From positions 170,671 through 234,670 of the IMG/VR virus record IMGVR_UViG_2974671799_000001: a stretch of 64,000 nucleotides of DNA. The stretch is one strand, 5' to 3'. Shown here piece by piece: positions 23,345 to 24,366 of this stretch (position 1 is its first letter; the number at the start of each line of letters is the position of its first letter). This stretch comes from a virus (Duplodnaviria; Caudoviricetes). The notes under the pieces are model-generated. The model did no database searches. It was not told the origin of the DNA and was given only the letters and a program-made list of their open reading frames with translations. The position numbers and the translations under genes were made by a program.

Positions 23345-23375
23345 TTTGGTTGTTCAGAATAAATCATTATATTTG
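23345..23375 (+). promoter_or_regulatory. Bacteroidota sigma-A promoter of the Pth2-HD gene
   Basis: TTTG, 19 nt, TATATTTG, downstream of a terminator at 23299-23326. Confidence 0.85.
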
Positions 23376-23412
23376 TAACTCAAATTAATGTTTAACTTAA
23401 ATTTTTTATATT

Positions 23413-24366
23413 ATGAAATAGATAACCAAAAATTCAAATCGTTCTAACAAGGTTGAGCAAAGTCAAAAATTTAGAATTATAACACGCTCAGATTTAAGTG
23501 TTGGTCAAGCTGTTGTTCAAACAGCCCATGTAGCCGCGGAATTTCAAATGAATTTCCCAACCGAATATGAAACATGGTTAAAAACAAATAGAAGTATAAT
23601 TACATTTTCGGCAAAGAATGGTAAAGAACTTCTCGAATATGAGACACTCTTAAAATCAAAGGGAGTCCAAACCTATAGGTTCTATGAACCCGATTATAAT
23701 CAAATAACGGGTATCGGAATAGTACCTAGTGACCAAGCTAGAAAAATGACATCATCTTTAAAACTTTTTAGACATACACAACAAGAAATGTATTTCGACG
23801 AGGTTACAAGAGATATGAGTCGTACCGAACAAATGGATAACCTTTCCGTACTACAACATGGTGAAATGGTACACGACTATTATAAAATGATAGTTTCAAA
23901 TCAAATGTGTAACCTTTCAAAATTTGAAAAAGTACCTAAATGGTTACTCGAAAATAAAGCGTATATTCTAAATGAATTGTCTAAATTTGATTTCAACGCA
24001 ATCAAAGATTATCAAATAATGCATGATTTGGGTAAACCATACTGTATTCAAATTGATGAAAATGGTAGAAGACATTTCCCGAACCACGCGCAAGTTTCAT
24101 ATGATACTTGGAAAAAGTTAAATGGTGACCCTTTTGTTGGTAACTTAATACTTAATGATATGAAAATGCATACAATGAAGGCATCAGATATTGAAGACTT
24201 TATGAAAATAGAGGGTTACTTAATATTAATGGTAACATCAGTTGCTGAATTATACGCAAATGCTGAAATGTTTGGTGGTTATGAATCAACTTCATTCAAA
24301 ATTAAATTCAAACAGTTAGAAAAGAGAGGAAATGCTATCTTTAGAATCATAAATGAATCTAAGTAA
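23413..24366 (+). CDS. Pth2-like peptidyl-tRNA hydrolase fused to an HD domain, with an in-frame TAG at codon 3
   Basis: ATG AAA TAG, then an open frame KFRIITRSDLSVGQAVVQTAHVAAEF...W...FYEPDYNQITGIGI...SSLKLF continuous with the track ORF at 23548; C-terminal SVLQH...MHDLGKP...HFPNHA. Confidence 0.8.

Follow-up and report, generated by a model that had tools for sequence, protein, structure and literature searches.

An early in-frame stop codon in a phage Pth2/HD gene and its probable reading by a phage-encoded suppressor tRNA

How can an enzyme be made from a gene whose third codon is a stop codon? This question is raised by a gene for a Pth2-like protein (Pth2 being a family of peptidyl-tRNA hydrolases) in a virus of the class Caudoviricetes (IMG/VR record IMGVR_UViG_2974671799_000001). 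The record is a single contig of 234,670 bp with a GC content of 28%, and the stretch analysed here (the window) is its final 64 kb, that is, positions 170,671 to 234,670, numbered below from 1 to 64,000. On the plus strand of the window, the gene opens with ATG (23413-23415), AAA (23416-23418) and TAG (23419-23421), followed by an A (the next codon being ATA). The frame then stays open, and the full coding sequence, as proposed here, extends from 23413 to 24366 (317 codons plus TAA, with the UAG at codon 3 counted as a residue). We refer to the early stop codon as the gate.

The product joins a Pth2-like domain to an HD-fold domain, and its synthesis quite probably depends, judging from the comparison of related genes, on read-through of the gate by a transfer RNA (tRNA) with anticodon CUA that the phage itself encodes (20850-20924, plus strand). 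An earlier note on this DNA, made from the letters alone, had already proposed that the enzyme is made only when its UAG is read through, by a phage suppressor or under impaired termination, and the comparison supports the former part of the proposal, with an early stop in 47 of 60 representative relatives and an anticodon that matches the gate in all 33 cases where a suppressor tRNA was found in the locus.

The early stop and the protein behind it

The stretch from 23422 to 23547 (plus strand) holds 42 sense codons, which encode a disordered tail, the first strand and the first helix of the Pth2 fold. It contains no in-frame ATG, GTG or TTG, and a canonical start appears for the first time at the 43rd codon past the TAG. 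Both the ATG AAA TAG opening from 23413 (23413-23421) and the 42 open codons had been described in the earlier note, and both were found exactly as described. Mechanical calling of open reading frames (ORFs) gives a protein of 272 amino acids, from the ATG at 23548 (Met46 of the full product) to the TAA at 24364-24366. This layout is more than chance, since it recurs in relatives and since a genome-wide set of 630 stop-to-stop ORFs (60 codons or longer) holds no other long one that pairs an ATG-N-TAG leader with a distant first canonical start; the Pth2/HD gene is the only clearly gated gene of the genome. The product continues in the frame of the ATG after the stop, and a continuation in the +1 frame, as in prfB, was not found. 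One public sequencing run, not on record as RNA, contains a small share of the sequence words; its contigs match only parts of 23939-24541, and the gate codon lies outside the covered parts.

The Pth2-like domain comprises residues ~20-119 (23470-23769, plus strand), as delimited by Pfam PF01981 and by structure matches. With the TAG read as a residue, the Pfam PTH2 model (PF01981) is matched with 32 bits against a cut-off of 23, over residues 22-119 and profile positions 5-115 of 115. AlphaFold2, run on an alignment of 50 rows, gives a model with a mean predicted local distance difference test score (pLDDT) of 92.6, in which the N-terminus is disordered (residues 1-19, pLDDT 62-75), residues 20-25 form strand 1 and residues 30-47 form helix 1, both elements thus starting ahead of Met46. 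The claim that the ORF from 23548 lacks part of the fold is borne out by this model. Four family-invariant residues that are common to solved Pth2 structures (R25, D27, Q36 and H39) all precede Met46 as well, and the Pth2 fold, as modelled, would need the codons upstream of 23548. A profile of 11 phage sequences, compared with solved chains, finds the Pth2 chain 2zv3_A (E 3.7e-7), and Foldseek places the model with 2zv3, 1rlk, 3erj, 1q7s and 1xty (E 1.5e-5 to 8e-5, template modelling scores of 0.70-0.78, normalised by target length). VIA-align of this domain gives 1wn2_A with Z 14.5 and a root-mean-square deviation of 2.2 over 105 aligned residues. The NCBIfam equivalog cut-offs for archaeal Pth2 are not reached (NF003314, 21.9 versus 126 bits; TIGR00283, 20.6 versus 82 bits), and the domain is a divergent branch of Pth2. 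In the profile alignment to 2zv3_A and 24bt_A, a gap of two residues falls on the G-K of the solved chains, and a phage-invariant glutamate (E92, in an E-P-D motif) stands opposite the aspartate of their D-A-G. The lysine of G-K and the aspartate of D-A-G are, we take it, the catalytic residues of Pth2.

The C-terminal domain (residues ~121-317; 23773-24363, plus strand) adds to the account given in the earlier note. Its HD fold was recognized by VIA-align and by conserved columns. For residues 121-313 of the model, the top match is 3wfo_A (a “tRNA processing enzyme”) with Z 14.9, followed by PhnZ (10.7), the GlyRS beta subunit (9.7), PgpH (9.5), PPX/GppA (9.4), SpoT (7.9) and Mesh1 (7.3), values which helical models readily attain. 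The sequence models for HD domains stay below their cut-offs (Pfam HD, 14 bits versus 22; HDIG TIGR00277, 12 bits versus 27.6), and a sequence search of this domain against solved structures gave nothing meaningful. All 11 aligned rows share H149, H204-D205-x-G-K, H221, H225, D249 and H253, and from their positions we infer that these histidines and aspartates bind metal. The fused protein, whose enzyme activities are predicted from these comparisons, probably acts on the 3' ends of tRNAs. In PHROGs only the truncated form is represented, phrog_14850 matching residues 46-317, that is, from the internal methionine.

Conservation of the gate and its match with suppressor tRNAs

A megablast of 8 kb against the phage collection gave no match, and the closest match at the protein level, among the records compared, is 39% identical. 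Among GenBank phages, those with a tblastn match to the Pth2-like domain are jumbo and large phages from many hosts, and the module (the Pth2-like and HD-fold domains) is present in cultured phages of Mycobacterium smegmatis, Cronobacter, Acinetobacter, Xanthomonas, Yersinia, Erwinia, Serratia and Salmonella. In IMG/VR, an alignment-based scan retrieved 70 loci, against one locus for a single-protein scan. One locus ran off its contig, another (L079) failed the motif filter and was read by eye, and the 81 loci with data were reduced to 60 representatives at 90% identity. A gene is here called gated by an operational rule: an ATG, at most eight sense codons, an in-frame stop, and no in-frame ATG before the conserved arginine of the domain.

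All of the first 13 loci (the window and 12 GenBank phage records) show an ATG, zero to two sense codons and a TAG in frame with the domain. The TAG follows MK in the window, MT in Acinetobacter phage ME3, MSH in Yersinia phage fHe-Yen9-03, MAH in XbC2, MAQ in GAP32, ML in Salmonella phage Arash and the initiator codon alone in Mycobacterium phage Bxz1 (ATG TAG). In XacN1, with the leader MK, the domain order is reversed and the gate opens the fused gene; five uncultured huge phages among the 13 also carry the early TAG. Over the 60 representatives, 47 are gated, 11 are ungated, one has a gate plus a downstream ATG and one is unresolved. The leaders of the 47 hold one sense codon in 30 cases, two in 12, three in two, seven in two and none in one, and in every one of them a purine follows the gate (34 A, 13 G). 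A purine after a stop codon favours suppression, while a U favours termination. A scan of contigs from prokaryote genomes yielded eight loci, all in metagenome-assembled genomes, of which seven are gated and all eight have a tRNA-CUA in the locus. The relatives share 27-40% identity, and the downstream domain keeps its invariant residues in 41 of 41 rows. The Pth2-like domain itself contains a second in-frame TAG in L019, in L027 (and L004) and in L041, respectively 38, 34 and 92 codons past the gate.

The tRNA of the window phage was called by ARAGORN and by Rfam (RF00005, 65.2 bits, full model); it is a canonical tRNA with the anticodon loop CUCUAAA and no encoded CCA. A tRNA with a CUA anticodon some 2.5 kb upstream had been reported before, and the two programs confirm it at 20850-20924, 2,569 nt upstream, the limit set for a matching tRNA being 10 kb. 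The window gene thus combines the gated layout, a matching tRNA within this distance and a purine after the gate. Among the relatives, a suppressor tRNA was found in the fetched locus of 33 of the 47 gated representatives (ARAGORN with default settings), 154 to 4,600 nt from the gate, and its anticodon fits the gate codon each time: 30 pairs are TAG/CUA, two are TAA/UUA (L062 and L083) and one is TGA/UCA (L077, with a leader of 7-8 sense codons). The check suggested in the earlier note, a search of phage homologues for a conserved ATG-NNN-TAG together with a tRNA-CUA, has accordingly turned out in its favour, with the early stop in 47 of 60 and a matching suppressor in 33.

The distribution of the three gate codons was followed on a 58-row maximum-likelihood tree, from which L004 and L019 were omitted since an internal stop shortens their domain. 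On this tree the two TAA gates require two separate changes, L062 being sister to the TAG-gated L043 (support 99/90), and the TGA-gated L077 nests within the TAG-gated clade of ME3 and GAP32 (99/88). Stop codon and anticodon have thus switched together independently, which we consider the strongest argument for the tRNA as the reader of the gate. The 48 distinct suppressor tRNAs collected look mutually unrelated in sequence; together with the disordered tail of the model, this diversity fits a position at which any residue would serve.

The gate extends to the HD partner. An HD-like domain, a homologue of the C-terminal half of the window protein, is fused to the Pth2-like gene, or lies within about 1.3 kb of it, in 27 of 83 loci, and 16 loci were read by eye. 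Ten separate HD-like genes (L003, L005, L014, L025, L028, L032, L038, L052, L055 and L079) open with ATG, one to seven sense codons and TAG; three, of the GAP32 group, have an internal TAG near codon 47; two (ME3 and Arash) are ungated and overlap the end of the gated Pth2 gene; and one is fused. L079 has, one after the other, a tRNA-CUA, a gated HD gene and an ungated Pth2 gene. The gating of the HD partner, including this last arrangement, indicates that the controlled unit is the two-domain module, which in the window is fused behind a single gate.

Read-through by the phage tRNA and its alternatives

In the mechanism that we propose, translation would start at the ATG at 23413 and reach the UAG at the third codon. 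If the host uses the standard code, release factor 1 (RF1) would terminate there and leave only a dipeptide; once the phage tRNA-CUA is expressed, matured and charged, the UAG would be decoded and the full enzyme of 317 residues made. The A that follows the stop would favour suppression over termination, according to the context effect mentioned above, and any inserted residue would presumably be tolerated, because the gate lies in the disordered N-terminal tail. Read-through, the charging of the tRNA and the function of the enzyme are what we infer from the comparisons. The earlier note had also pointed to the default dipeptidyl-tRNA as a substrate of the enzyme; this cannot be general, because the leaders vary from zero to seven sense codons and Bxz1 has ATG TAG.

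Several observations weigh against the dependence on the phage tRNA. For 14 of the 47 gated representatives, default ARAGORN calls no suppressor tRNA within the fetched sequence. Closer looks gave weak CUA tRNAs upstream in L028 and L038 (relaxed ARAGORN, or Rfam below threshold) and a suppressor tRNA 46 kb away in the same record in L014; XacN1, also one of the 14, has two by its published description (PMC5852040), and for L002 short flanks had been fetched and its relative L073 has a suppressor tRNA. Seven (L005, L007, L008, L030, L032, L040 and L058) are still without one after these looks. Stretches resembling a tRNA with a CUA loop, picked up by a regular expression in L015 and L016, were left uncounted, as relaxed ARAGORN does not call them. 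Among the 11 ungated representatives, eight have no suppressor tRNA nearby and three have one. The blastn matches of the tRNA-CUA are to annotated phage tRNA-Glu genes and are only partial (51-68% of the query), and an amino-acid identity was not assigned from them. Ten of the 47 gated genes have a GTG or TTG in frame past the gate but ahead of the conserved arginine (in Bxz1 a GTG comes right behind the TAG) and could start there without suppression. Immediately past the gate, 28 of 47 have ATT, ATA or ATC and 11 of 47 have GTN, which could hint at near-cognate initiation. Finally, the representatives are related and the loci were gathered via a conserved motif, and their counts are not counts of independent events.

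The last of these codon counts bear on a different explanation, in which the three-codon ORF is a regulatory mini-ORF and the enzyme starts at the non-canonical ATA at 23422 or ATT at 23476, for example by termination and reinitiation, with no need for a suppressor tRNA. The codons capable of near-cognate initiation after the gate (28 of 47, plus GTG in one) and the ten genes with a GTG or TTG before the conserved arginine speak for it, and a start at the ATT at 23476 (residue 22) would retain most of strand 1. However, the codon after the gate is unable to initiate in 18 of 47 (GTA in seven, GTT in three, and AAT, AAC, AAA, ACA, ACC, AGC, GAA and GCG in one each), a canonical start ahead of the conserved arginine is absent from 37 of 47, and K19, which lies upstream of the ATT at 23476, is kept in 38 of 41 rows. 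Moreover, a mini-ORF would explain neither its own constant in-frame position nor the joint change of gate codon and anticodon in three separate lineages, and we regard this explanation as unlikely. Still less likely is read-through without any phage tRNA, under weak RF1 termination, in which the gate would sense the capacity for termination much as prfB does for release factor 2 (RF2). Such a sensor would agree with a very early stop, with a purine after it in 47 of 47 (a context that weakens termination) and with the seven gated representatives in which no suppressor tRNA was found; yet the release factor sensed would not be the same for UAA as for UGA gates, and the match of anticodon and gate in 33 of 33, together with the switches to TAA/UUA and TGA/UCA, points to the tRNA as the reader.

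Two further explanations concern the status of the TAG itself. If TAG were reassigned throughout the genome (code 15), the Pth2/HD gene would be just one of many recoded genes; the phage does encode a tRNA-CUA, and the promoter-like motifs (as we assign them) and the low GC content fit a host among the Bacteroidota, for which TAG-recoded phages are described. Of the features of code-15 phages, the tRNA-CUA is the one present here; many genes with in-frame TAG, and TAG out of use as a terminator, are not found. In the whole genome, TAG ends 25 of the 209 ATG-started ORFs of at least 120 codons, and the extensions past the terminator are short (median of 9 codons after TAG versus 6 after TAA). 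With TAG read as sense, the long ORFs of the window increase from 92 to just 106, and over the whole genome the scan shows no second long ORF for which an early TAG would have to be decoded. Genome-wide reassignment is accordingly highly improbable, and the view of the earlier note that this is a single-gene switch, and not a recoded genome, is sustained by the 25 of 209. A search for tandem “back-up” stops behind the TAG-terminated genes of this genome gave no clear signal, and the base past the 25 ordinary TAG terminators is T in 14, as against a purine past all 47 gates. Outside the window, a 524-codon ORF ends with TAG followed by G (G000:C1:135787), its frame staying open for 180 codons more with an ATG two codons past the TAG, a possible read-through fusion of adjacent genes. 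For the relatives with TAA or TGA gates (L062, L083 and L077), ORF coverage under altered stop sets does not tell the codes apart, and the coverage of 0.79-0.94 under the standard code gives no call for recoding. An error in sequencing, or a nonsense mutation peculiar to this phage in a decaying gene, can practically be discarded as the origin of the TAG, given the early stop in 47 of 60 relatives at 27-40% identity and the invariant residues kept in 41 of 41 rows.

The surrounding locus, known systems and the meaning of the gate

The transcription unit of the gated gene is bounded by recognizable signals. A pattern search finds a promoter-like motif (TTTG-N19-TATATTTG) ahead of the gene (23345-23375) and another of the same form ahead of the suppressor tRNA (20803-20833), both on the plus strand, and a further motif (TTTG-N17-21-TAnnTTTG, 24430-24461) precedes the next gene downstream. 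The pattern TTTGN{17,21}TANNTTTG occurs 18 times in the window where 4.84 matches are expected, and none of 100 shuffles reaches 18; the sites (for example 11564, 18076, 33180, 41021 and 57318) are mostly on the plus strand and ahead of genes. The TTTG-N17-21-TAnnTTTG motif is presumably the -33/-7 promoter consensus of the Bacteroidota, and its enrichment before genes fits host promoters of this type. The ATG at 23413 had been described as the first one past the motif at 23345-23375, which needs correction: an earlier, out-of-frame ATG lies at 23388 and opens a 19-codon ORF on the plus strand, which ends at the TAA at 23445-23447, overlaps the gate and begins ~5-10 nt from the expected transcript start. 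Upstream, a terminator-like hairpin with a T run (23299-23326, plus strand) closes the preceding gene (22862-23299). Directly past the stop codon of the gated gene lies a terminator-like palindrome (24371-24396, reported on the minus strand, with a palindromic stem), followed by a second hairpin (24413-24449, plus strand).

ARAGORN finds three tRNAs in the whole 234,670-bp genome, all inside the window. Besides the tRNA-CUA, there are two near-identical tRNA-like genes of 80 nt (21362-21441 and 21729-21808, plus strand), with normal acceptor, D and T arms and an anticodon arm about three pairs longer than usual (15 nt where 9 are expected; loop UAUAUUA). ARAGORN reads them as Ile-UAU, and Rfam scores them with 58.8 and 60.6 bits. 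Comparable odd tRNA-like genes lie right upstream of the gated Pth2 gene in phage L122 (570-656, 802-931 and 383-448), and such genes might belong to the Pth2/HD module. Past the tRNA-CUA, the stretch 20925-21360 (plus strand) is free of ORFs but contains fragments that resemble tRNAs; 21525-21597 (plus strand) gives a weak tRNA match of 37.1 bits. The whole region from 20.8 to 21.8 kb looks like a cluster of RNA genes. In the ungated loci L068, L074/L069, L076 and L130, mostly on high-GC contigs, a suppressor tRNA (CUA or UUA) adjoins the Pth2-like gene, and in L068, L074 and L076 it is the only tRNA of the fetched locus; reading these three in three frames gave no clear gate. The link between suppressor tRNA and Pth2 is thus not only about the gate and may go beyond it.

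The window also encodes PNKP (38536-39573, plus strand; PF25109 with 117.8 bits, plus a kinase domain) and an RNA ligase of the T4 Rnl1 type (41018-42130, plus strand; PF09511 with 69.4 bits), which together form a T4-like pair for the repair of tRNA breaks. In frame and directly upstream of the PNKP start at 38536 stands ATG CTT TAG AAC TTA ATG (38521-38538, plus strand), within the end of the preceding ORF, where it may have arisen by chance. The investment of the phage in tRNA repair makes a tRNA-end role of the gated enzyme fitting. Nevertheless, the PNKP and Rnl1 genes are not clearly gated, and their products act on breaks in the anticodon loop and not on the acceptor end.

Elements of the proposed control have counterparts in well-known systems. 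The gene prfB, for RF2, is autoregulated by an early in-frame UGA and a +1 frameshift and senses its own product. The likeness lies in an early stop within a translation-related gene, with the output set by competition at that stop; here, however, the frame is unchanged and the stop would be read by a dedicated tRNA whose gene lies close by. In lambda bar and other two-codon minigenes (AUG-NNN-stop), failure of termination gives a very short peptidyl-tRNA. The window gene opens with the same kind of unit, but bar stands alone, whereas here the frame runs into an enzyme, and the leader in relatives varies from zero to seven sense codons. Programmed read-through in Q-beta A1 and retroviral gag-pol likewise decodes a stop as sense for a longer product; there, host tRNAs read the stop at low frequency and both products work, whereas here the short product would be no more than a dipeptide, and the phage brings the tRNA that would read the stop.

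A further comparison is with code-15 phages (crAss-like and Lak), in which TAG is read as glutamine via phage suppressor tRNAs (bioRxiv 10.1101/2021.08.26.457843; PMC9523058) and for which a control of the timing of translation is proposed. They share with the window phage a host with the standard code, a phage tRNA-CUA and in-frame UAG. Unlike them, the window phage has the in-frame UAG in one gene, at codon 3 (its relatives in two genes of one module), keeps TAG as a terminator, and belongs to a group in which some lineages switch gate and anticodon to TAA/UUA or TGA/UCA. As for the enzyme, Iyer et al. (2021; PMC7824862) proposed that the PTH2 of jumbo phages, which is of the same protein family and from the same kind of phage, hydrolyses peptidyl-tRNA in ribosome rescue after tRNA cleavage. 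In the text of that article, the terms “suppressor” and “stop codon” are absent, and neither the early stop nor the tRNA link nor the HD-fold partner is described. Phage suppressor tRNAs, TAG recoding and the presence of PTH2 in jumbo phages are each well described; our searches of the literature, largely at the level of abstracts, turned up no account of an early stop in the Pth2 genes of phages or of a connection between it and suppressor tRNAs.

What, then, is the gate for? Given PNKP, Rnl1 and the proposal of Iyer et al., a role at tRNA 3' ends in a conflict over tRNAs is the most economical guess. The ungated relatives L037 and L060 lie in large tRNA clusters free of suppressors, which suggests that the enzyme does not need a suppressor as its substrate; a role in timing or dosage is therefore favoured over a strict feedback loop. 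Our preferred guess is that the gate is a timing and dosage device, tying the synthesis of a tRNA-end hydrolase to a working phage tRNA. A more elaborate possibility, to which we give rather little credence, is that of a self-contained checkpoint on the tRNA supply of the phage: the suppressor tRNA would report that phage tRNAs are being transcribed, matured and charged in spite of attack on tRNAs by the host, and only upon this would the acceptor-end hydrolases (Pth2-like and HD-fold) be made, which perhaps act on the suppressor or on read-through products (a feedback), gate codon and anticodon co-evolving like lock and key. If this were true, the module would be a natural orthogonal translational switch like those built in synthetic biology.

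The early stop also explains why gene callers truncate or miss these genes. Several GenBank records of GAP32-like phages have no feature, or only fragments, over the Pth2-like region, gaps which we attribute to the early stop, and the Arash record annotates a “peptidyl-tRNA hydrolase” of 50 amino acids. To our knowledge, the suppressor tRNAs of standard-code phages had no known targets before. For XacN1, which carries two suppressor tRNAs, its authors could not identify targets, by their own account (PMC5852040). The Pth2/HD module is a specific, testable target for phage suppressor tRNAs. The natural pairs of tRNA and leader for amber, ochre and opal codons are possible parts for controlled gene expression, and the gated module itself represents a minimal form of stop-codon recoding, which may be a stepping stone to the recoding of whole genomes.

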